In this document: positions 10,427-23,367 of the stretch, in pieces
How positions within the stretch are numbered: the stretch's first letter is position 1
Layout: every line of letters begins with the position of its first letter
Source: Oscillospiraceae bacterium
Lineage (GTDB): Bacteria > Bacillota > Clostridia > Oscillospirales > UBA929
Length of the DNA stretch: 30,064 nucleotides
Direction of reading: 5' to 3'
Assembly (NCBI GenBank): GCA_009777435.1
Contig: WRLW01000001.1
Span: 1-30,064 of the forward strand
Translations under genes and position numbers: made by a program
The notes under the pieces: model-generated
Told to the model about the DNA's origin: nothing
What the model saw: the letters and a program-made list of their open reading frames with translations, nothing else
Database searches by the model: none

Positions 10427-11839
10427 TCAGTCGGTATTAAACTCGCCCGTAAGCGATGATATGGTGGCCTTCGCGTCCCCGTATATCATAAGGGTATTTC
10501 CCATATGGAACAGCTCGTTTTCGATTCCTGAGAAGCCCTTGCCCTTACCGCGCTTGAGGACGAACACCGTTTTGGCCTCATAAGCCTTTATGATGGGCAT
10601 ACCGTATATGGGCGACGAAGGCTCCGTTTCCGCGGCGGGGTTTACAACGTCGTTGGCCCCGATGACGATAGCAACGTCTTGCGCGGGCATGATCGGGTTC
10701 GTTTCCTCCATTGTTTTAAGCTGCTCATAAGGGATATCCGCCTCGGCCAGCAGGACGTTCATGTGACCGGGCATACGTCCGGCGACCGGGTGTATGGCAA
10801 AGCTTACCTCGGCGCCGTTTTGCTCAAGCTTCGACGCAAGCTCCTTGACGACGTGCTGCGCCTGCGCGACGGCCATACCGTAGCCCGGTATGAACACCAC
10901 CGACTGGGCGGCCTCCAGAATTAAATACGCGTCCTCGACCGATATGGCCTTGGGCTCGGCTTGGGGGCCTTTTTTGCCGGAGGACGATTCGGAAGCGCCA
11001 AACCCGCTGAAGAGAAGGTTGCTGATAGAACGGTTCATGGCCTTGCACATTATCAGTGTGAGGACTACGCCCGAAGCGCCCACTAAGCATCCGGCCACTA
11101 TCAATACCGTGTTGGAGATTATGAAACCGGCCATAGACGCGGCCAATCCCGAAAAGCTGTTCAGCAGGGATATGACGACCGGCATATCGCCGCCGCCTAT
11201 GGGCAGCACCGCGGTAAAGCCCAGTATAAGCGCGAGCGCCGTGAGGGTTATGACCATGACGGTCTTTACATAAACGTCGATGCCGGGTATGACGTAGATA
11301 ACTATGGCGGAGAGCGAAACCAAGATGAGCAGCAGGTTAATGGGCTTCTGCCCCTTGAATAAAATCGCGCGCCCCGTGATTTTTTCCGCAAGCTTGGCCC
11401 ATGCCAATACGGAGCCGGTAAAGGTTATCGCGCCGATCAAAATGGTCAGCCCTATGGACACGGCGCTGACCAAATCGCTGCCCTCGGGGTCTTTAAGGAA
11501 CTCCGACAAGGCGACCAGCAAAGACGCGAGGCCTCCGAAGCCGTTAAAAAGCGCCACCAATTCGGGCATCCCCGTCATCTTTACCCTTTTGGCCCATATG
11601 ACGCCGACGGCCGAGCCTATAACGATGCTTATAAAGCACCACAGATATCCGTTCTGCATCCAGTCCGAGGTGTTCCACGACGCCGCGACGTCCTTTTCGC
11701 AAAGCACCGCGACGACGGCTATCAGCATACCAAGGGAGGAAATAAAGTTGCCCTGACGCGCGGTTTTTACTTTATTGAGCCTCTTTATACCTATGATGAA
11801 TAAAACGCAGGCCACTATATACGCGAGATTGATAAGCAT
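10427..11839 (-). CDS. pntB: NAD(P) transhydrogenase subunit beta
   Basis: MPELVALFNGFGGLAS, IGGGDMPVVISLLNSFSG, IPGYGMAVAQAQH, HPVAGRMPGHMNVLLAEA, GANDVVNP. Start ATG 11839 overlaps the upstream stop (TAATG). Confidence 0.95.
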   Translation of the reverse strand: MLINLAYIVACVLFIIGIKRLNKVKTARQGNFISSLGMLIAVVAVLCEKDVAASWNTSDWMQNGYLWCFISIVIGSAVGVIWAKRVKMTGMPELVALFNGFGGLASLLVALSEFLKDPEGSDLVSAVSIGLTILIGAITFTGSVLAWAKLAEKITGRAILFKGQKPINLLLILVSLSAIVIYVIPGIDVYVKTVMVITLTALALILGFTAVLPIGGGDMPVVISLLNSFSGLAASMAGFIISNTVLIVAGCLVGASGVVLTLIMCKAMNRSISNLLFSGFGASESSSGKKGPQAEPKAISVEDAYLILEAAQSVVFIPGYGMAVAQAQHVVKELASKLEQNGAEVSFAIHPVAGRMPGHMNVLLAEADIPYEQLKTMEETNPIMPAQDVAIVIGANDVVNPAAETEPSSPIYGMPIIKAYEAKTVFVLKRGKGKGFSGIENELFHMGNTLMIYGDAKATISSLTGEFNTD

Positions 11840-12132
11840 TACTTCCTGTCCTCCTTCTTGCGGAACATACGCAGCATACGGTCGGTTATCAGATATCCGC
11901 CCACTACGTTTATGGCCGCGAATATCACGGCCAGAAAAGACAGGATCATCCCAAGCGTCCCCGTGGCCTGCACGGCGCACACCGCCAAAGCGCCCACTAT
12001 GGTTATGCCCGATATGGCGTTTGTGCCCGACATCAGGGGCGTGTGCAGCTGTGAGGGCACCTTTGATATAAGCTCTACACCCAAAAACGCCGCGATTACG
12101 AATATGAATATGAGGAATACTATATTTTCCAT
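11839..12132 (-). CDS. pntAB: NAD(P) transhydrogenase subunit alpha part 2 (membrane)
   Basis: LHTPLMSGTNAISGI and INVVGGYLITDRMLRMF motifs; three hydrophobic helices; AAGGAG RBS. Confidence 0.93.
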   Translation of the reverse strand: MENIVFLIFIFVIAAFLGVELISKVPSQLHTPLMSGTNAISGITIVGALAVCAVQATGTLGMILSFLAVIFAAINVVGGYLITDRMLRMFRKKEDRK

Positions 12133-13527: not shown

Positions 13528-16410
13528 TTACGGCGTCAGTGCGAATACGGCGCTGTCCACCGTTCCCGGGGCTTTGCCGGTGCCGGGTTCGGTGTAGAAC
13601 ACCCGGACAAAGACGTGAGTTACTGTTGGCCCAGGTGTGGTAAGAGTTGCGGTCGTCATTCCAGATATGGGGGTCGGGTCGGCTTTACTCGCATTAGTGC
13701 TATACCACTGATACGAAAGCACTCCGCTTCCGCCGGCGGGGACGGCGGCACCGACGGTCGGTGAAGTTGCGGTCGGCTGCGTGCCAATTGTGGGCGCGGG
13801 CGAGGTGGCCGACACCACCGTTACCTTGACGACAACGCTGTCAAGCGAAGCCGCGTTTTTGTTGGGTTCTTTGCTTGTCACGCGGACGAAGTAGAAATAC
13901 TCGCCCGTAGCTAAAGTTTTCGGGATGGTAAGCGTCGCGGTTCCGGCGTTCTTGTGTCCCCAGGTCGTATCCGCGTCGGTAATCATTTGCGGGCTTCCCT
14001 TGCTTGCGTTGGCGCAGCGATACCAGCGGTAAGAGAGGATCGAGGTCGGGGTGCCTGTGGCGACGACGGTTAGCTGCCCGTCCTCGTAACCCATATTGAT
14101 AGGCACAGGCTGCGTGATAATTTCGGGCGGGTCGGAGGTTTCAGGCAGGACTATGACTAAATCCTCCGGCGGATCGGGCGGCTCCATGCCCGGCGCGAGG
14201 AACCACGCGGCGGCAACCGCGTCCTTGCCGTTGGTGGCCTTGCCCCAGTAGATATGTATCGAGCCGTTGATGCTCGCGGAGGCCCCGGTGTAGCCTGTGC
14301 CGTCCTTGTCGGCCTTGGCTGTGGCCTTTAGGCGCGTGTCGGGGATGGAGGTAATGGAGGCGGTCAGCGCGGGCAGGCCGCCCCATTTTTTGCTTGTGGC
14401 GTTCCAAATCTCATATTTTCTCGAATCCAGCTTGATCTTGCCGTTGGGAGCGGGTATGGCCACGGCCTCTTCGGGCATCTCTATCCTCGGCGCGAGCTTA
14501 ATATTCTGTATGCGGCTGGCCGGCTTCTTCGCGGTGGCCGTCATCCAGGCGCGGACGGAGCCTTCCGCCGCTCCTATGGCGCTCTCAATGGATACGCCCT
14601 TTAGCTCGGGCGTCCCCTTCGCGTATATCACGGTCTCGATGCCCGTGCCGCTGAGAGACATCCCCACTTTGGGCTTTATGTTCTCCAGCTTATAGTTAAC
14701 CTTAATCTTGGGCTGCGCGAGCTGGCCGGAGGCCGTTACTTTATAGAGCTTGCTCGCCGCTTTCGCGTTGCCGTCATTGCCGCCCACGGGCGCGCCGCGC
14801 ACTAAGTAGACGGTTTTAGCCGGCTTCTGCCCCGCCTCTGTGGGCATGACGTTGATGCCCTGCGCCCCTCTGAAGCGGCCCCAGCCGTCCTCGTCGGGGT
14901 CTTTTTTGTTGGAGGCGGCCACCGCGATTTGCAGGCCGCTCAAATCGGAGGCCTCGGTCGCGTTTTTGGGGGTAAGCGTCCACTGGCCGGGGGTTTCGCT
15001 TGTGTTGTCGGGATATATCGAATAGTTGACGGTAAGCTTGGTCACGGAGGGACGCGCGGCGATTTTGGCAAACGCTATGATGGTCGCGCCGGGCACGGCG
15101 GCCGTCTCCCCCTCGGCCGCTTTTCCGGCGATGGGCTTTTTGGTGGCCCTGTCAATTTCGAGATTAGACAGATGCAGTGTCAAATCCTTGCTCAGCAGCT
15201 TGCTGAATTCGGCCGGCGGCGCGCCGGATTTCCAATTGCCGCCGCCGTCGATGCTGAAAGCGGCGACCGTGAAGCCGCTCGGCAAGGTCAGCTTTTCAGC
15301 GTCAAGGTCTATAATCGCGCTGTCGGCGGTGTAGGTGTTTGGGTCTGTGCTGTGCGCCGCGTCCTTAACCGGCGTGGCCGTCACGAGGGCGGAGGAGGGC
15401 ACATAAGCGATATTGTGCTTGCCTCCGCCGGACTGAAAGGTTGGGCGGGAGCCGCCGCTCTTGATTGTCCAGGTTTCTTCAAAATCCCAGCCCAATTCAA
15501 TCCACGTTTCAGGTTTTTTCACTTGCTCCGCGGTGATGTCATGGCCATCTTCTTCGATAATGTAGGTGGTTTTTTCCAGCGATGTGCTGCCATATTTGAG
15601 AACCACTGATTCAGATGCGTAGTTTTCTTCATAGGTTCCCGAATCCTTCTTTGCTATGCGAAAAACAGCAGTGGATGCGTCCTTTGTCGTCACGCTTGTG
15701 TTCAGCGACACGCTTCTTTTGATGGCGCCGCTTAAATTTACGCTTGCTATGCCGCCGACTAACTTATCGGCGCTAATCTCGGCGGTGCTGTAGCAAAACT
15801 CTATGAGGCCGCTGTTCTGGCCCACTATACCGCCGAAATTTCCCGGATCTGTACCCCCTCCGGTTATTTTGCCGGTCACATAGCAGTTGGAAATCGTGCC
15901 GCCACTCTCATTCACACCCGCTATTCCCCCAGCGTACGAACGAGCGGTAATGTTGATGTTCTCAAGACCGAGGTTTTTCACAACGCCGCCATCCCGAATG
16001 TTGTTGAACAAGCCTTGATTAACACCAAAGGTTTCATGGTCTTTCGGTTCGTTAGCGTATCCGGTTCTGTTAATGGTCAGTCCGGTGATTACAAACCCGC
16101 CGCCGTCGTATGTACCCACAAAATAGCCTTCCGCGGCACTGAGGTTGGCTCCGGGTGTGCCGGGGTAGCCGTTTCCGCCTATGGGCATCCAGTTGGTGTA
16201 AGACGAGATATCAATGTCGGCTATTTGCTTGTAGTGGGCGTCCATCGTCCAGCCGTCCTCTCCGCTGCCGACCTTTCGCAGGGTCGCCGCTGTGCTGACA
16301 ATGAACGGGCTTTCGGCCGTGCCGGACGCTTGCGCCGACGGCGCCGCCGCCGTCACTAAAGAGAGAGCCATGATGGCCGCGAGGGTTAGCGATAACACTT
16401 TCCGTTTCAC
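13528..16410 (-). CDS. secreted modular protein A (about 960 aa): signal peptide, GLUG-like repeat region, shared Lys-rich module, two Ig-like repeats
   Basis: Signal peptide KRKVLSLTLAAIMALSLVTAAAPSAQA. FVGTYDGGGFVITGLTI, VKNLGLEN, AGGIAG and FGGIVG are GLUG-type motifs. C-terminal LSYRWY / LSYQWY repeats. Start GTG 16410 lies 7 nt after GGAGGT. Confidence 0.8.
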   Translation of the reverse strand: MKRKVLSLTLAAIMALSLVTAAAPSAQASGTAESPFIVSTAATLRKVGSGEDGWTMDAHYKQIADIDISSYTNWMPIGGNGYPGTPGANLSAAEGYFVGTYDGGGFVITGLTINRTGYANEPKDHETFGVNQGLFNNIRDGGVVKNLGLENINITARSYAGGIAGVNESGGTISNCYVTGKITGGGTDPGNFGGIVGQNSGLIEFCYSTAEISADKLVGGIASVNLSGAIKRSVSLNTSVTTKDASTAVFRIAKKDSGTYEENYASESVVLKYGSTSLEKTTYIIEEDGHDITAEQVKKPETWIELGWDFEETWTIKSGGSRPTFQSGGGKHNIAYVPSSALVTATPVKDAAHSTDPNTYTADSAIIDLDAEKLTLPSGFTVAAFSIDGGGNWKSGAPPAEFSKLLSKDLTLHLSNLEIDRATKKPIAGKAAEGETAAVPGATIIAFAKIAARPSVTKLTVNYSIYPDNTSETPGQWTLTPKNATEASDLSGLQIAVAASNKKDPDEDGWGRFRGAQGINVMPTEAGQKPAKTVYLVRGAPVGGNDGNAKAASKLYKVTASGQLAQPKIKVNYKLENIKPKVGMSLSGTGIETVIYAKGTPELKGVSIESAIGAAEGSVRAWMTATAKKPASRIQNIKLAPRIEMPEEAVAIPAPNGKIKLDSRKYEIWNATSKKWGGLPALTASITSIPDTRLKATAKADKDGTGYTGASASINGSIHIYWGKATNGKDAVAAAWFLAPGMEPPDPPEDLVIVLPETSDPPEIITQPVPINMGYEDGQLTVVATGTPTSILSYRWYRCANASKGSPQMITDADTTWGHKNAGTATLTIPKTLATGEYFYFVRVTSKEPNKNAASLDSVVVKVTVVSATSPAPTIGTQPTATSPTVGAAVPAGGSGVLSYQWYSTNASKADPTPISGMTTATLTTPGPTVTHVFVRVFYTEPGTGKAPGTVDSAVFALTP

Positions 16411-16499
16411 AGTAAATACCTCCATGTTTAATGATTTGGATCCTTCCGTTTATTATGCTCAAAGTCGTAATGACCGTGATGCCGCTAAAAGGTTGGCGC

Positions 16500-18551
16500 T
16501 CAGCCGCCTATAATTGTCAACACCTGCTTTTCAAGCACGGTATTGTAAGGCGGGTTGTTGCTGATTACCCGCAAGATATACTCTCCGTCAGGCAAGCTGT
16601 TCAGCACGGGGCTGCCTTGCCGGAACCGTATCATTCCGCTCCCGGCGATGTCTCTCTCGTAATCCGTGTTAAGTACCAGCGGCCGGGGATTCGTCCCGTC
16701 GGTATTGACGATATACGCGGCGGTATAGGCGGCATTGACGCCCGTAAGCGTGGTCGCTTTCCTGCCGTAGCCTCTTTCATCAAGACCCGTAAAGACGATT
16801 TGCTCATATACGTAGCCGGGGGCAGTAAATGGGGTCAGGCTCTTGTCGAAGGTTATCTGAGCGGGAGAACCCGGGAAGCTCGGCAGCTGGGCGTTGTCCC
16901 TTATGGTGAGGGCCTTTGATATAGGCCCGCTGGGGGATATGCTGCCACCCTCAAATGTAAGGCCCTCGAAGTCGTCGTTGAATCTGATTTCAATGGTGTA
17001 GTTCCTGCGCCAATCCATATTCGAGTACCAATCCAAGGGCAGGCTGTCAAACCAGTTCCCATCCGCGTGCAGTATGGTGAGCTGCGTGCCGCTGACGGTG
17101 TAGTCTGCCGGCTCAAGCACCCTTTCCCCGAATTTGATCGAGGTGATGCCTGTAGCGGCGGCGGGGCCGCGCCCCCAGTTAAGGGTTATGTTCAGGTTCG
17201 CCCCGACATAGATCTGATTGCCGTTCACCCCGTATAGGGTGTGTACGCTCATGCCGCCTACCGCGCTGTTTAAGAAGTTGGCGACAATCGTGAAGTTCGG
17301 CGAGGACGTAGGCTCGGTCATACCTTTCGGCAGAACCTCTATCTCGATTTCGTCGCTCGTCGTATCTAACGTGGTCACGTTGTTGTCATACATGAACCGG
17401 ACTTTGACGGAGTAATAGTGTATGCCTACGCCCAGATTTCCGGGCAGGGTATACTCGGGGTCGTCGCCGAAATCGCGGGCTCTCGACGAGAACCGATCCG
17501 AAGGCCCTTTATGCCACCATTCGTATTGAAGCTTTCCGTCGGTAAAGGTGGTTGTGGCGGCCACGGTCAGTGTATGGCCGGTTGTGCCCTCTTCAAAATA
17601 GGCGCTTTCGGGCGGCTCGGTGATTTCGATCTGCAATATCTTGCCGGGGGTCGGTTTGCTGCCGTCGGCTATTATTTCGCCTATGGACATGCCTGTTTTG
17701 TTCTTGCCGTCGCTGTCCGTGTAATCGCCGTAAGTGATTTTGATTTTGCCGCCCGAGCTGGCCGCCTTGGCGTTCGCGCCCTTGGGCACGGCCTTGGCGC
17801 GGATGTAAAACACATGCACCCCCGGCGTGTTTATCTTGGGGAGCTTGCCCCACTTGCTCTTGGCCGGATTGGCTGTGTTTTCCACCCATATCTCATAGGG
17901 CTTCATGTCGGTGGTTATCTTGCCGCTGTTTATGGTGAGCTGCATACTCTCAAACGGGCCGCGCTTGAGCGCGGTGAGGATCTGGTTCTCGGTGGCCGGT
18001 TTTTTCCCCGTGGGCGCTTTGCGCAGCAGCAGCTCGCCGTCCTCGTCGCTTATAAGCGGCTCGGCGTTATAAGGCATAGGCTTCCCCTTGCTGTCGAGCG
18101 GGACGTCCGTCCATTCTTTGCCGCCGTCAAGGGAATATTGGTCGCCCTTTTTCATCTTGATTATCTCGTTTTTGTAGTCGATCTTGTATTTGGTCGGCTT
18201 GCCGTAGTTGGCGGGCGTTAGCTTGGCCGCCTTGCTGGGGGCGCTGCCCGACGCGCGCACGAAAACCGGGGCCTTCGCGGAGCTGCTCGGCTTCATGTCA
18301 AAGCCCGTGAAGCTTACGGCCGTCCACGGGCCGTCCGCGCTCGCGGCCCACTCATACCCGGTCGAGAGCTTTTCGGTCTTGCCTTTCTCGACCAAAAACC
18401 ATTTGGCGGGGTTTGCGGGGTCGTAATACGCCGCAACCTTGGGCGCGGGCGCTTCTCCCGCGGAAGTCGCAAGCGCCGGCGGCGGCAGCGCCGCCATCAG
18501 CGACAGAACCGTCATGGCCGCGAGGGTTAAGGATAACACTTTCCGTTTCAT
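16500..18551 (-). CDS. secreted modular protein B (683 aa): signal peptide, shared Lys-rich module, Ig-like domain, two X2-like Ig domains
   Basis: Signal peptide MKRKVLSLTLAAMTVLSLMAALPPPALA; GGGAGGT RBS; LQYEWW...HYYSVKV Ig-like segment. ITSIKFGERVLEPADYTVSGTQLTI and LVLNTDYERD...LPDGEYIL resemble X2 modules (family call tentative). Confidence 0.8.
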   Translation of the reverse strand: MKRKVLSLTLAAMTVLSLMAALPPPALATSAGEAPAPKVAAYYDPANPAKWFLVEKGKTEKLSTGYEWAASADGPWTAVSFTGFDMKPSSSAKAPVFVRASGSAPSKAAKLTPANYGKPTKYKIDYKNEIIKMKKGDQYSLDGGKEWTDVPLDSKGKPMPYNAEPLISDEDGELLLRKAPTGKKPATENQILTALKRGPFESMQLTINSGKITTDMKPYEIWVENTANPAKSKWGKLPKINTPGVHVFYIRAKAVPKGANAKAASSGGKIKITYGDYTDSDGKNKTGMSIGEIIADGSKPTPGKILQIEITEPPESAYFEEGTTGHTLTVAATTTFTDGKLQYEWWHKGPSDRFSSRARDFGDDPEYTLPGNLGVGIHYYSVKVRFMYDNNVTTLDTTSDEIEIEVLPKGMTEPTSSPNFTIVANFLNSAVGGMSVHTLYGVNGNQIYVGANLNITLNWGRGPAAATGITSIKFGERVLEPADYTVSGTQLTILHADGNWFDSLPLDWYSNMDWRRNYTIEIRFNDDFEGLTFEGGSISPSGPISKALTIRDNAQLPSFPGSPAQITFDKSLTPFTAPGYVYEQIVFTGLDERGYGRKATTLTGVNAAYTAAYIVNTDGTNPRPLVLNTDYERDIAGSGMIRFRQGSPVLNSLPDGEYILRVISNNPPYNTVLEKQVLTIIGG

Positions 18552-19750
18552 GCTGAAATACCTCCCTGTTAATCAATTCGGATCCTTCCGTCTATTCAGC
18601 TCAAGTCGTATATTATGGTGAGGTGAAGCCGGGTAACTCCTTCGGTTTCTCCGACCGAGAATTTGGACTCAGCCACTATACAGCCCGGGAAGAGGTTGAA
18701 CACCGTGTCGTCAACATTCTCGAACTTATATTCCCCGGTGGCGCTCAGCGAGACCTGAAAGCGAATTTTGTCTTGCGGGTATGTACCGTCATCTAAGCCT
18801 TCATATAAAGGCGTTTGCGGCTCGATGATATACCATGTCCCGCCTTCCAAGCCGGGGTTGTAAACGCCGCTCACGGCCTTTAATTTCGCCCGCGGCTGGC
18901 CCACTACGGGCTTCGGGATGAGCAGGCCCTCAAGCTCAGGCGGGTACAGCACGGCGCCGGAGCCGATTTGGGCCGCCGTTATGCCGCTCTTGTTATCGCT
19001 CAGCGAGCCATAAGTCACCTTGAGCGTGCTGCTCAGGCTGGCCGCCTTGGCGCTCGCGCCCTTGGGCGCGGCTTTTACGCGGATGAGAAACTCATGCACC
19101 CCGTCGGTGGTTATTTTGGGGAGCTTGCCCCACTTGCTCTTGGCCGGATTGGCTGTGTTTACTATCCATATCTCATAGTTTTTCATGTCGGAGGTTATCT
19201 TGCCGTTTGCCACGCTCAGCTCCGCGTCGGCAATTACGGCGCGGGGCAGCGACGTTATGGTCTGGGTCTCGGTGGCCGGCTTTTTCCCCGTGGCGCTTTT
19301 GCGCAGCAGCATATCGCCGTCGCCGCCGCTTATAAACAGCTCGGCGTTATACGGTATGGGCTTCCCCTTATCGTCGAGCCGGACATCGGCCCAGGTCTTG
19401 CCGTCGTCGGTTGAATACTGGTCGCCTTTTTTCATCTTGATTATCTCGTTTTTGTAGTCGATTTTGTATTTGGTCGGCTTGCCGTAGTTGGCGGGCGTTA
19501 CCTTGACCGCCTTGCTGGCGGGTATTTTGCCGAATTCCATGGCGCGCACAAAAACCGGGGCTTTGGGCGCGCTGCTCGCTTTTATGTCGAAGCCGGTCTC
19601 GGGCACGGAAGTCCACGGGCCGGTGGCGCTTGAGGCGTATTCATATCCGCCCGTAAGCATTATGGGCGTGTCTGTTTTGACCTTCTCGGTCAAAAACCAT
19701 TTGTCGGGGCTTTTGAGGTCATAATAGGGCGCGAGCTTGGGCGCGGGCGG
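17727..19750. repeat. direct repeat of the module-coding DNA in genes B (about 17727-18452) and C (about 19007-19750)
   Basis: 18141-18220 vs 19421-19500 match at 78/80; 17836-17880 vs 19116-19160 match at 45/45; both offsets are 1280 bp. Confidence 0.9.
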
Positions 19751-20251
19751 CTCTTTCACGACCGCGTTCTCGCTGATAACGACCGAGGCGTGAATTGTGC
19801 CCTGAGTGTTTTCTGCTAAATTGGTATCAAAGTTTATTAAAAAGGCGAGTCTGAAGCTGAGCCTGAGCGTTTGCGCAACGACAAACGGCTGTTGAACCGC
19901 GGAGATGTCGCCGGGGCCGTTGGGGTTGGCGATCACAAACTCAAATGTGACCGATTTCCCGTCTCCGCTTACCACTATGTTCCGGCAGGGGTTAACCGTG
20001 CCGTTATGGGCGGGGTATACTATACCTATAGATGTATAGTTGAGACCGGTATCTGTAAAACTGCTCGCGTTGAATCTGCCATTGCCTTTGACTATGCTGA
20101 CCGTGATGGTTGTGTCGCCCACATTTACCGGCTGGATTCTCACGTCGGCGCTTGTGGAATTGCCGGACGCCAGCGCGGCCGGCGATAACGCCGTCACAAG
20201 CGACAGTGTAATGGCGGCCGTGAGAGCTATTGACAAAAGTCTCCTTTTCAT
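18596..20251 (-). CDS. secreted modular protein C (about 551 aa): signal peptide, unique N-domain, shared Lys-rich module, short unique C-domain
   Basis: Start ATG 20251 (MKRRLLSIALTAAITLSLVTALSPAALA) after GGAGGT; central region is homologous to protein B. Confidence 0.8.
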   Translation of the reverse strand: MKRRLLSIALTAAITLSLVTALSPAALASGNSTSADVRIQPVNVGDTTITVSIVKGNGRFNASSFTDTGLNYTSIGIVYPAHNGTVNPCRNIVVSGDGKSVTFEFVIANPNGPGDISAVQQPFVVAQTLRLSFRLAFLINFDTNLAENTQGTIHASVVISENAVVKEPPAPKLAPYYDLKSPDKWFLTEKVKTDTPIMLTGGYEYASSATGPWTSVPETGFDIKASSAPKAPVFVRAMEFGKIPASKAVKVTPANYGKPTKYKIDYKNEIIKMKKGDQYSTDDGKTWADVRLDDKGKPIPYNAELFISGGDGDMLLRKSATGKKPATETQTITSLPRAVIADAELSVANGKITSDMKNYEIWIVNTANPAKSKWGKLPKITTDGVHEFLIRVKAAPKGASAKAASLSSTLKVTYGSLSDNKSGITAAQIGSGAVLYPPELEGLLIPKPVVGQPRAKLKAVSGVYNPGLEGGTWYIIEPQTPLYEGLDDGTYPQDKIRFQVSLSATGEYKFENVDDTVFNLFPGCIVAESKFSVGETEGVTRLHLTIIYDLS

Positions 20252-20309
20252 AGACCATACCTCCATGTGAAATATTCGGACATAAAGCGGCTCCTTCCGC
20301 CTCGTATAT

Positions 20310-20337
20310 ATTATACGAAGCAAAGGGAGCCGGACAA
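20310..20337 (-). promoter_or_regulatory. probable promoter of gene C (and possibly of the whole C-B-A cluster)
   Basis: Minus strand perfect -10 TATAAT with a weak -35 TTGTCC and a 16-bp spacer, about 60 bp upstream of the start. Confidence 0.5.
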
Positions 20338-20347
20338 AAGCCCTTTG

Positions 20348-20379
20348 ACGCGGTTGGTCAAAAAACGGACGTAGTTGGT
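20348..20379. promoter_or_regulatory. candidate LytTR-type operator (direct repeat, 21-bp period)
   Basis: ACGCGGTTGGT (20348-20358) and ACGTAGTTGGT (20369-20379), just upstream of the weak -35. Confidence 0.45.
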
Positions 20380-20393
20380 AACGTCGGGGCGGG

Positions 20394-20720
20394 TTATTCG
20401 GAGGAAGGCGGCCACAAAAGCCAGCCGTAGTCCTGACGGCAGTCAACGGCCGCCGTTATGTAGACAACGCCGTCCCGGATTTCAAATAACGCCATATGAT
20501 ACTTGCCGAAGCGAATTTTGCGGTATCTCTGAAACGGTATGGCTTCATGCTCTAACCAGGGGCAGCGTTCGGGGCTTTGCGCGAGGGCGCCGGCGGCTGC
20601 GACAAAGGCGTCGGCAAGCCTGTTCGCGGCTTCCGCGCTGACGTTCGCGAGGAAGCGCGCGTGGGCGAGCATTTGCTCAAACGCCGCGTCGGTGACCTTG
20701 ACGGTAAAGGTTTTATCCAT
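20394..20720 (-). CDS. type II toxin, RelE/ParE superfamily (ParE-like)
   Basis: 108 aa; VKVTDAAFEQM...AANRL...LAQSPERCP...YRKIRFGKYHMALFEI...VYITAAVDCRQDY matches the ParE/RelE pattern; 8-bp overlap with the upstream antitoxin. Confidence 0.8.
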   Translation of the reverse strand: MDKTFTVKVTDAAFEQMLAHARFLANVSAEAANRLADAFVAAAGALAQSPERCPWLEHEAIPFQRYRKIRFGKYHMALFEIRDGVVYITAAVDCRQDYGWLLWPPSSE

Positions 20721-21077: not shown

Positions 21078-22550
21078 CTACCATTCTATCTTCAGCGCGG
21101 CCTCCGCGCTGAAGGAGTCGCCCGTATGCTCAAACGAGACGAAGCCGCCGTGTTTTTCCGCTATTTTGCGGATGATGCCGATGCCGTATCCGTGCAGTAA
21201 GCGGTCGCCCTTGGTGGTGACGTAGCGCCCGCCGTCCATGCCGACGTCCCCGTGCCGCGCGTTGGTAACCGAAAGGTACATATAGGGCTTGCTGGCGTTA
21301 AGCTGGACTTTGGCCCAGCGGCCTTCAGGGTCTTGGATGTTCGCGCAGCTTTCCAGCGCGTTGCTGAGCATGTTCATAAACAGGCTCACGAGATCCGCGT
21401 CGGGGACGTCGAGAGGCGGCAGCGGCGAAACGTCGAATTCGATTTCAAACTCAAGCTGGCGCGCGCGCCGTGCGGCGTGGGTGAACAGGGCCTGTATGAT
21501 GCGGTTGCCGCAGTAGACCGGCCCCTCAAGATCCCCATAGCTTTCGTTTAAGCCGGACAGGTAGTTCGACAGCCGCTCATACTGCCCCTTCTCAAGCAGT
21601 ATGCTTATGGCCAGCAGATGATGGTGCAGCTCATGCCGCATGTGGGCGATCTGCGCGATATAGTTTTCTAAAGTTTGGTAATTTTCCATCAGGAACTCGT
21701 TTTTTACTTCCAGCATCCGTATTTCGGACTGATGGCCGACCAGCTCGCGGGTGTTTATAAGCAGGACATGGCACATCATATAGGCCGCGCTGAGCAATAT
21801 GGCGTTTTTGTATTCGTCGTGAAATAAGAATGGGCTTCCGGCCAGTGTCCTGACGAGCAGATAGAGCCAAAAAACGGCCCAGACGGCGGTCAGCGTCCTC
21901 ATATACCGCGCCGCGTCCTTGGATTCCGGCCAGAGGGAGCCGGCGGGCAGGAATAAAAAGGCGCATACCCCCGCTATGGGGCTGTACAGCCTGTCGGGTA
22001 TATCAAGCGGCAGTCCGAGCGCGAAGAACATAAGCCACGCGGCGGCGCCGTAAGCGGCGAGTATGATTATGGGCGCGAGCAGCCATTTTTGGGCGCGGGG
22101 GCTCAAATAAAGATAGAAGTGCAGAAACAGCGCGATAGGGTATCCGTAAAAAGAGAGCTTATTGACATAGAACAGAAGCTCCAGGCTTAAAACCCGCGAG
22201 GCCGGCCCGGTCATGGACAGCGTGTTCAGCGCGAACAGCGACGCGAAAAGCCCCATCAGGAGGATATGCCCGCACCTCAGCTTATTTGCGGCGCGTATCA
22301 GGCCCAAGGCGAAGCAGACCAGACCTAAAAACAGGCAGATAACGCCTCCCGCGATGTCAAAGGCGCCCCATTCGAGGGTATAGGGCATGACCGGCGGCAC
22401 GTTCTCGCCTATGCGGAGGTTTGGGAAGCGTTCCGCGTCGATAGGCATACCGCCCGACAGCCGGACATGGGGGGAGACCATGCCGATGTAAATAAGACAT
22501 ATCAGGGCGGCCGCCGCCATCAGGAGATACCAGGTTTTTTGTTTGCCCAT
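21078..22550 (-). CDS. membrane sensor histidine kinase, AgrC/HPK10-like GHKL
   Basis: One N-terminal TM, an extracellular loop and about 7 further hydrophobic helices; H-box MRHELHHHL, N-box FMNMLSNALES, VTNAR, TTK...HGYGIGII. Confidence 0.85.
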   Translation of the reverse strand: MGKQKTWYLLMAAAALICLIYIGMVSPHVRLSGGMPIDAERFPNLRIGENVPPVMPYTLEWGAFDIAGGVICLFLGLVCFALGLIRAANKLRCGHILLMGLFASLFALNTLSMTGPASRVLSLELLFYVNKLSFYGYPIALFLHFYLYLSPRAQKWLLAPIIILAAYGAAAWLMFFALGLPLDIPDRLYSPIAGVCAFLFLPAGSLWPESKDAARYMRTLTAVWAVFWLYLLVRTLAGSPFLFHDEYKNAILLSAAYMMCHVLLINTRELVGHQSEIRMLEVKNEFLMENYQTLENYIAQIAHMRHELHHHLLAISILLEKGQYERLSNYLSGLNESYGDLEGPVYCGNRIIQALFTHAARRARQLEFEIEFDVSPLPPLDVPDADLVSLFMNMLSNALESCANIQDPEGRWAKVQLNASKPYMYLSVTNARHGDVGMDGGRYVTTKGDRLLHGYGIGIIRKIAEKHGGFVSFEHTGDSFSAEAALKIEW

Positions 22551-22659
22551 GCTTTCACTTCCGGTTTGAGTTCAATTTATAATAAATATAAAACTCTCCG
22601 CTTGGGTATTCAGCGCTCTCTTTTTTGTTACGATATACTATAAGCGGAGGTGTGCCTTT

Positions 22660-23367
22660 ATGTACAGGATTGCCATATGCGAGGACGAGGCGGTTTTCCG
22701 CGCCGAACATGAGCGGATATGCCGCCGCATTTTCGCTAAGCTGAATATAGAATACCACATATCCTCATTTGAATCCAGCGCGGCTTTTTTAGACGCCTTT
22801 TCCAAGGGGAGGAGATACGACCTCTTTTTGCTGGATATCGTCATGGACGAAACAAACGGCATGGAGCTGGCGCGGAAGATACGCGAAAGCGGCGATGACG
22901 CCGCCATTATATTCATTACCTCAAACCCCGACCATGTATGGCAGGGGTATGACGTGGGCGCGCTGCATTACCTTATGAAGCCGCCGGACGGCGATGTGCT
23001 GGAGCGCCTGATAGCGTCGGATTACGACCGCAGGTTCCAAAGCGGCTCTATCGTCGTCAGGGCCGGGGCGCAGACCCTGCGCATACCTGCCGAGGACGTG
23101 ATCTGCCTTGAGACCGTGGGAAAGCGCGTGGCGGTCACGCTGGACGACAGGACGGTCGAGTGTTCGGGAAAGCTGTCGGAGCTTTTGAGCGGGCTGCCCA
23201 AGGAGCAGTTTGTCCGCTGCCATGTCGCCTATGCCGTCAACGTGCGCAAGATGCAGGAAATCACGCGGACGGACGCCGTGGCCGTAAACGGCAAAAAAAT
23301 ACCGATCAGCCGCGCGTACTCCAAAGACGTGCAAAAGGCGTTTCTGAGGAAGATGCGCAAGGCTTAG
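22660..23367 (+). CDS. LytTR-family response regulator
   Basis: Receiver IAICEDE / FLLDIVM / GMELARKIR / IIFITS / YLMKP and LytTR FVRCHVAYAVN...IPISR; GGAGGT RBS. Confidence 0.92.
   Translation: MYRIAICEDEAVFRAEHERICRRIFAKLNIEYHISSFESSAAFLDAFSKGRRYDLFLLDIVMDETNGMELARKIRESGDDAAIIFITSNPDHVWQGYDVGALHYLMKPPDGDVLERLIASDYDRRFQSGSIVVRAGAQTLRIPAEDVICLETVGKRVAVTLDDRTVECSGKLSELLSGLPKEQFVRCHVAYAVNVRKMQEITRTDAVAVNGKKIPISRAYSKDVQKAFLRKMRKA

Follow-up and report, generated by a model that had tools for sequence, protein, structure and literature searches.

A conserved basic module shared by three tandem secreted proteins of an Oscillospiraceae bacterium, a candidate for non-covalent retention on the cell envelope

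A shared module and its predicted anatomy

Why three neighbouring secreted proteins should join one conserved basic module to differing cargo is the question raised by a 30,064-nucleotide stretch of DNA from an Oscillospiraceae bacterium (contig WRLW01000001.1 of assembly GCA_009777435.1; hereafter the window). An earlier note on this DNA had described genes A, B and C on the minus strand and proposed that their common module is a novel cell-envelope anchoring or polymerisation domain, used as a scaffold for surface display. The three open reading frames (ORFs) are present as described and their translations confirm them. Gene A (13528..16425, minus strand) encodes a 965-residue protein with a signal peptide, a GLUG-type head, the module and two C-terminal Ig-like repeats. 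Gene B (16500..18551, minus strand; 683 residues) places the module after the signal peptide and follows it with an Ig-like domain also present in A and a unique C-terminal part. The product of gene C (18596..20251, minus strand; 551 residues) has a signal peptide, a unique 135-residue N-terminal domain, the module and a unique 120-residue C-terminal domain; its ORF extends over 18596-20446, the Met at 20251 being the likely start, which gives the same form as record P0004.

The module is shared by A, B and C far beyond chance. B and C are 64% identical over 267 residues (E 1e-103), and A and B are 27% identical over 410 residues (E 5e-16), a span comprising the module and one downstream Ig-like domain. 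A profile of the module matches the three proteins with E values from 1e-104 to 1e-138. The signal peptides are likewise related, as the earlier note had reported (55% over 29 residues for B and C, 57% over 35 residues for A and B), and all are of the Sec type, ending A-x-A. The module lies centrally in A (residues 362-743; 14197..15342, minus strand; profile positions 1-357, E 4.6e-138) and in C (approximately residues 166-430; 18962..19756, minus strand; profile match 18965-19783, E 4.9e-113), and at the N-terminus of B (residues 33-294; 17670..18455, minus strand; profile positions 77-355, E 1.6e-104). This is the placement that had been read from the sequence.

Alignment with database relatives showed that the full unit is about 360 residues long and consists of four subdomains, R0 to R3. 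Protein A has all four (R0 at approximately 15052-15336, residues 364-458; R1 at 14716-15051; R2 at 14500-14715; R3 at 14188-14499, all on the minus strand, with borders set from DSSP and motifs), and B and C have R1-R3 without R0. The shared basic module of the earlier note is therefore real, but its estimated length of about 250 residues was too short for what is a cassette of four beta domains including an N-terminal R0. R0 is marked by A-Y-S-x-D-G-G-x-K-W and R1 by Y-Y...W-x-L...G-Y-E. R2 carries K-x-D-Y-K-K-E-x-I-K-L-K, followed by an Asp-box, and ends in A-T-x-K-K-P-A-S, and R3 is recognised by G-K-x...Y-E...K-W-G-x-L-P-K...I-R-x-K...A-A-S...G-I-x-x-A-x-I. Comparison by hhalign shows R0 to be homologous to R2 (probability 73%, E 3e-5). 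The idea that the cassette is four copies of one repeat was dropped, all other subdomain pairs being at hhalign background.

In A, B and C the module had no Pfam match, NCBIfam likewise gave none, and its profile found no PDB sequence at E<=1. When 94 modules were compared with Pfam, the only recurrent match was the Asp-box (BNR, PF02012), found in 12 of them with a best E of 1.3e-5; this is a motif and not a functional family. Reelin_subrepeat-B appeared in four of the 94 and CHB_HEX_C (PF03174 / PF13290) weakly in two (E ~0.04), and a CHB_HEX_C_1 match in one protein of genome G009, considered below, falls outside the module. The Asp-box can be read directly in B (YSLDGGKEW), C (YSTDDGKTW) and R0 of A (FSIDGGGNW), and in R0 its S, G and W hardly vary. 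The description of the module as unrecognised was thus borne out, in that it maps to no characterised family, and it represents a new, lineage-restricted sequence family, without a name in Pfam, NCBIfam or the PDB, that is probably a variant of the terminal surface-address modules.

An AlphaFold2 model of A residues 355-750, made from 94 aligned homologues, reached a pLDDT of 94.8 and a pTM of 0.86, and because of these values the four beta-rich domains are predicted to pack as one body in fixed geometry. In the model R0, R1 and R2 appear as FN3/Ig-like sandwiches, R0 and R2 with the Asp-box hairpin. Foldseek searches with the whole model returned only generic tandem FN3/Ig arrays from the PDB (E ~1e-3, TM 0.2-0.3) and unnamed or Ig/BIG2 proteins from the AFDB clusters. 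The nearest shapes in the ESM Atlas were Bacillota clusters (TM 0.50-0.57), two of them annotated CHB_HEX_C/BNR/Reelin-subrepeat-B. The cassette resembles such Asp-box Ig-like domains of Bacillota surface proteins in the S-x-D-G-G-x-x-W hairpin of R0 and R2, but its Pfam matches are sporadic and below cut-off, and one of the Atlas clusters has SLH domains throughout whereas the module family does not. Tandem FN3/Ig arrays such as fibronectin FN10-12 (6xay) and CD148 FN1-2 (7u08) are matched only by low, generic scores and no fn3 Pfam match is made; the cassette differs from them in being, as modelled, one rigid body that is strongly basic and ends in R3.

R3 is the unusual part of the cassette. 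Modelled alone (B residues 186-294, 96 sequences; pLDDT 95.1), it is predicted to be a small beta domain of about 100 residues. It has no convincing structural neighbour (Foldseek best E of 0.17 against the PDB and 0.099 against the AFDB clusters, Atlas TM 0.51 or lower), a lack that is no proof of a new fold. Structure prediction, which the earlier note had suggested, has thus yielded a confident model that leads to no characterised family, but not the single novel domain that had been envisaged, since three of the four parts appear to be ordinary FN3/Ig-like domains. A two-copy prediction of the A module (alignment A3) scored 0.00 with no controls run and counts neither for nor against polymerisation, an alternative that found no support of its own.

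Placement, cargo and charge of the module

Of the 155 best family matches, 76 have the module at their extreme C-terminus and 35 have it immediately behind the signal peptide; it stands alone in 22 and is internal in 22. Because only these last 22 are internal, the module is better described as a terminal element than as an internal spacer. Many of the C-terminal members stop a few residues past the last strand of the module, and some have tails of 10-35 residues.

The cargo is varied. Pfam matches among 111 full-length members include Flg_new, Peptidase_C1, S8, LRR_5, lectin, Glug, Big_2, RCC1, transglutaminase, MACPF and a single GH17, two members have transglutaminase cores, and a word-based protein search found a member, P0006, that its source names M6 metalloprotease-like. 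SLH, CWB, LysM and dockerin are absent from the families listed for the 111. In the window, the GLUG label that the earlier note gave to A is above the Pfam cut-off (26 against 20.5 bits), but the X2-like label that it gave to B lacks significance (CBM_X2, E 0.086). The C-terminal part of B was not found in 40 relatives and the head of A was found weakly in three. An Ig-like domain just downstream of the module is common to A (residues 760-965, window 13531-14148, two copies) and B (residues 310-404, approximately 17340-17620), and there is a weak Big_13 Pfam match in this part of A. A comparison of the same cargo in module-bearing proteins and in SLH proteins of module-free relatives failed because the cargo is too divergent.

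None of the surface-attachment devices looked for was found in A, B and C. In agreement with the earlier note, Pfam and inspection of the C-termini gave no SLH, dockerin or LPXTG signal; CWB was likewise lacking, and the C-terminal ends have no hydrophobic tail. SLH (PF00395) gave no match in the three proteins even at E<=1, and CWB2 (PF04122), LysM, CW_binding_1, SH3b/GW and dockerin gave no Pfam match either in them or in the family tallies. An LPXTG tail was found in one of 155 family members.

A marked charge asymmetry runs through the family. The median isoelectric point (pI) of the module is 9.41, with 91% of values above 8.5, whereas the non-module parts have a median of 4.67 and no value over 8.5. 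In the window proteins the module lies at 9.5-9.7 and the rest at 4.5-5.5 (for B, 9.5 against 4.7). R3 is the most basic subdomain (pI 9.5, net +5), followed by R1 and R2, with R0 close to neutral. Although the mean column identity of the 94 divergent sequences compared is 22%, particular Lys/Arg columns are retained in 80-95% of them, for instance in the motifs A-T-x-K-K-P-A-S/T, Y-K-K-E-x-I-K-L-K and K-W-G-x-L-P-K. The basic charge is therefore positional and not merely compositional.

Together, terminal placement, the module-only proteins, the basic surface, and the SLH exclusion, expansion where SLH was not found and sortase fusions described below make a non-covalent cell-envelope retention module the favoured reading, which is held at slightly less than even confidence. 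The members of the family are Sec-exported proteins that join a variable acidic cargo to a conserved basic cassette of up to four beta-rich subdomains. Under the proposed mechanism, the cassette would hold its protein non-covalently to the envelope of the cell that produced it, and the positionally conserved Lys/Arg residues would bind an anionic wall component.

The same body of evidence bears on the proposal that the cassette is a structural stalk, or an element of a self-assembling, S-layer-like lattice, with no specific wall ligand. The FN3/Ig-like character of R0-R2 and the occurrence of module-only proteins are in keeping with this, the high pTM suggests a rigid rod, and among the Foldseek matches are Ig-like assembly domains from two S-layer proteins of Bacillus anthracis, EA1 and Sap. 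Those matches are weak, however (E ~2e-3, TM < 0.2), and no better than the ones to generic FN3 arrays. Moreover, a spacer at the extreme end of a protein has nothing to space, and the strongly conserved charge and motifs exceed a spacer's needs, all of which makes the stalk or lattice proposal improbable.

SLH exclusion, an expanded genome and sortase fusions

The retention reading invites comparison with the SLH triplets (PF00395), which are abundant in the same bacterial family and likewise form an N- or C-terminal module on paralogous secreted proteins whose cargo varies. The two do not match in sequence, and the SLH motif of about 55 residues differs from an all-beta cassette of about 360. 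SLH and the module were, moreover, never found in one ORF of the three genomes compared, namely the source genome G000 (35 SLH matches), G002 and G020: each has approximately 15-25 SLH ORFs, and an SLH motif occurs in none of about 28 module ORFs.

SLH domains need a pyruvylated wall polymer (PMC6030368), and it is in this respect that genome G009 (99% complete, 2.2 Mb) is informative. It is the richest in the module, with at least 50 matches among 96 candidates, roughly 45 ORFs, all supplied by a family that has no name. Neither an SLH match nor a match to a CsaB-type pyruvyl-transferase (PF04230) was obtained in it, whereas its four congeners G017, G020, G022 and G024 gave 28-43 SLH matches, and the pyruvyl transferase is present in G017 and G020. 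PF04230 was also found in G008, and gave no match in G000, which is 83% complete. The congeners with SLH and G009, where it was not found, form a natural contrast for anchor switching of a surface proteome.

Inspection of 23 G009 ORFs (for example L019:940-3444, L019:3511-6696 and L101-L120) showed that the module extends to within three residues of the C-terminus in 20, and in the other three stops 20-32 residues short of it, one of these being cut by the end of the stretch inspected. In all but two of the 23 it is the R0-R2 form, without R3, at or within about 30 residues of the C-terminus, and many of the proteins share an almost identical tail, ...A-T-A-K-K-A-A-S-A-K-Q-T-V-G. The exceptions are L101, which has a full R0-R3 near the N-terminus of a frame cut by the stretch end, and L019 12188-14524, with a match envelope from residue 322. 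The charge asymmetry is preserved: in 21 of the 23 ORFs the module has a pI of 9.2-10.1, against 4.1-6.2 for the cargo.

Bacteroidota offer a comparable case, in which dozens of secreted proteins of one genome, otherwise unrelated, end in the Ig-like beta C-terminal domain of the type IX secretion system (T9SS CTD). The likeness would be one of analogy only; that system belongs to diderms, and the module also occurs N-terminally, is three to four domains long and has Clostridia as hosts. Another parallel lies in the CWB2 triplets (PF04122) of Clostridioides difficile, tandem repeats that combine into a single unit, sited at the N- or C-terminal end of numerous paralogues, and that bind the anionic wall polymer PSII (PMC4973711). 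The module too is found at either end of paralogues with different functional domains, and wall-polymer binding is what is proposed for it by analogy; it differs in giving no CWB2 Pfam match, and CWB2 is not a beta-sandwich.

Two proteins join parts of the cassette to a membrane-anchored sortase. In G009 (C1, L012:1042-2244, minus strand) a 400-residue protein starts with a membrane helix, continues with a sortase whose H, TLxTC and R motifs are intact, and ends, behind a Pro/Thr linker, in R2-R3. In G002 (C16, L013:1096-1974, minus strand) a 292-residue membrane-anchored sortase with intact catalytic motifs has R3 alone at its C-terminus. Both adjoin a gene with an LPXTG-type tail (LPQTG in G002). 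These fusions suggest that the ligand of R3 is near the membrane or wall, since a domain held at only a few nanometres' distance from the membrane would most plausibly find its ligand in the envelope of the producing cell. R2-R3 is also present in a frame of comparable length in G303 (C35, 404 residues).

These observations bear on a further proposal, that the cassette binds something outside the cell, such as an acidic polysaccharide, the surface of another microbe or host material, the proteins being released or otherwise retained. Carbohydrate-binding modules usually take the form of terminal beta-sandwiches, the conserved basic residues and Trp would suit a glycan or an anionic polymer, proteins made of a signal peptide and the module alone occur, and the relatives live in the termite gut. 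The cargo, however, consists mostly of proteases and adhesin-type repeats, with glycoside hydrolases rare, and the fusion of R3 to membrane-tethered sortases points to the producer's own envelope. The expansion in G009, with no SLH found, is also more readily explained if one anchor took the place of another than if 50 binders were suddenly required. Outward binding is thus judged unlikely, although it is the most serious rival to retention on the envelope.

The sortase fusions also raise the question of whether the conserved lysines are acceptors for covalent cross-linking, by a sortase in the pilin manner or by a transglutaminase, in which case the module would be a covalent assembly platform. 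Invariant lysine positions in an exposed A-T-x-K-K-P-A-S loop, the LPXTG-type substrates beside the sortase-R3 fusions and the transglutaminase cores of two family members all accord with this. Set against it are the lack of sorting signals in the module proteins, with one exception in 155, and searches that found no pilin motif or isopeptide-domain match. There is also no conserved sortase neighbour beside the clusters; the sortases of G000 lie on C2, C17 and C110, and only that on C2 is within 6 kb of a module paralogue. Covalent cross-linking is accordingly considered very improbable, and the pilin comparison stays an analogy only.

Several points weigh against retention on the envelope. 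In one ESM Atlas neighbour cluster all members combine SLH with an Asp-box Ig array of a similar kind, and FN3/Ig-like arrays are generic, often mere stalks, and can be passengers of a true anchor. The subdomains are separable, as seen in the G009 copies without R3, in B and C without R0 and in the sortases with R3 or R2-R3 only, and because they occur separately the anchor is not pinned to one part. The inverse counts of SLH and module are a trend among kin, and are not independent. Lastly, TagF-type genes (PF04464) do not track the module, being present in three of 16 carriers and six of 25 non-carriers, although G009 is the sole sampled member of its genus with a strong TagF-type glycerophosphotransferase.

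The display or anchor scaffold of the earlier note thus fits the terminal placement, varied cargo, SLH exclusion, basic charge, G009 expansion and sortase fusions, but all of this is circumstantial. A more far-reaching form of the retention reading is put forward only tentatively. The cassette, or R3 and R0-R2 separately, might constitute an undescribed non-covalent Gram-positive wall anchor with its own ligand, one that has replaced the SLH/pyruvylated-polymer system across the surface proteome in at least one lineage, with R3 positioning sortases at the wall.

About a dozen modes of protein retention on Gram-positive surfaces have been catalogued (review PMC5817068). Each newly described mode has led to studies of wall polymers, of surface display and of interaction with hosts, and the module is of interest to workers on Gram-positive envelopes, its narrow taxonomic range and uncultured hosts limiting its immediate reach. 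What is new here is the four-subdomain anatomy with its confident models, an R3 without structural neighbour, the sortase fusions and an expanded genome in which SLH was not found. R3 is an easy target for structure determination, since it is compact, confidently modelled and without a structural neighbour.

Distribution, cargo exchange and genomic setting

A profile search over 1.84 billion cluster representatives found 748 matches at E<=1e-3, nearly all of them from a single family of the order, with 312 at E<=1e-30. Among 301 genomes sampled from the order, matches were confined to two families, f1 (12 of 18 genomes) and f5 (one of three), and there were none in the 28 others. Sampling 400 genomes across the phylum yielded a single weak match. 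Within f1 the distribution follows genus (six of 25 genera among the relatives). One member of the module family is an NCBI record from a termite-gut Oscillospiraceae metagenome-assembled genome (MAG).

The source genome, a MAG of 1.68 Mb, has three module paralogues in addition to A, B and C; they lie on contigs C2, C125 with C111, and C250. The frames C125:3852-4976 and C111:4681-5625 are taken as halves of one gene because their translated ends overlap (...I-T-A-D-K-G), and the module genes in the assembled part of the genome therefore number six instead of seven.

Sets of three module genes in tandem are also present in four other genomes, which represent three other genera (G007:C27:67303-74368, G015:C39:59843-67254, G008:C91:9379-17548 and G010:C184:3808-11068). 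An 819-residue database protein, P0005, aligns with C over residues 1-445 (67%) and with B over residues 167-819 (59%). It carries one module where the window has two, and amounts to the head of C and the tail of B in a single gene. Such a pattern would be expected if tandem copies of the module had recombined unequally, or if a duplication had divided one gene into two, and it suggests that recombination between such copies may be a way in which cargo is shuffled.

In the window, A, B and C lie head to tail, with gaps of 44 nucleotides between C and B and 74 between B and A. They are probably one operon, since a consensus scan found no strong minus-strand terminator in either gap. The same kind of scan placed a putative sigma-70-like promoter upstream of C (20310..20337, minus strand; TTGTCC, a spacer of 16 nucleotides and TATAAT). 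A look-up of sequencing runs matching 16500-20251 listed none.

The cluster is flanked by housekeeping genes, with FtsH, L10 and PntB/PntA on one side and a GHKL kinase and a LytTR regulator on the other. The GHKL (HATPase_c_5) kinase and LytTR response regulator are encoded just upstream of the cluster, at 21078-23367. A functional linkage to this two-component system was considered and rejected, as the GHKL/LytTR pairing is not kept beside the clusters elsewhere in the family: G007, G010 and G015 have LytTR on contigs other than that of the cluster, and the search of G008 found none. These genomes belong to other genera.

Among named sequences, PntB (10427-11980) is nearest to those of termite-gut 'Oscillospiraceae bacterium' MAGs, and beside these, termite-gut MAGs of Treponema and Defluviitaleaceae also rank with its closest named relatives (68-75% identity). 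Such a mixture may reflect gene exchange within the termite-gut community or noise in binning.

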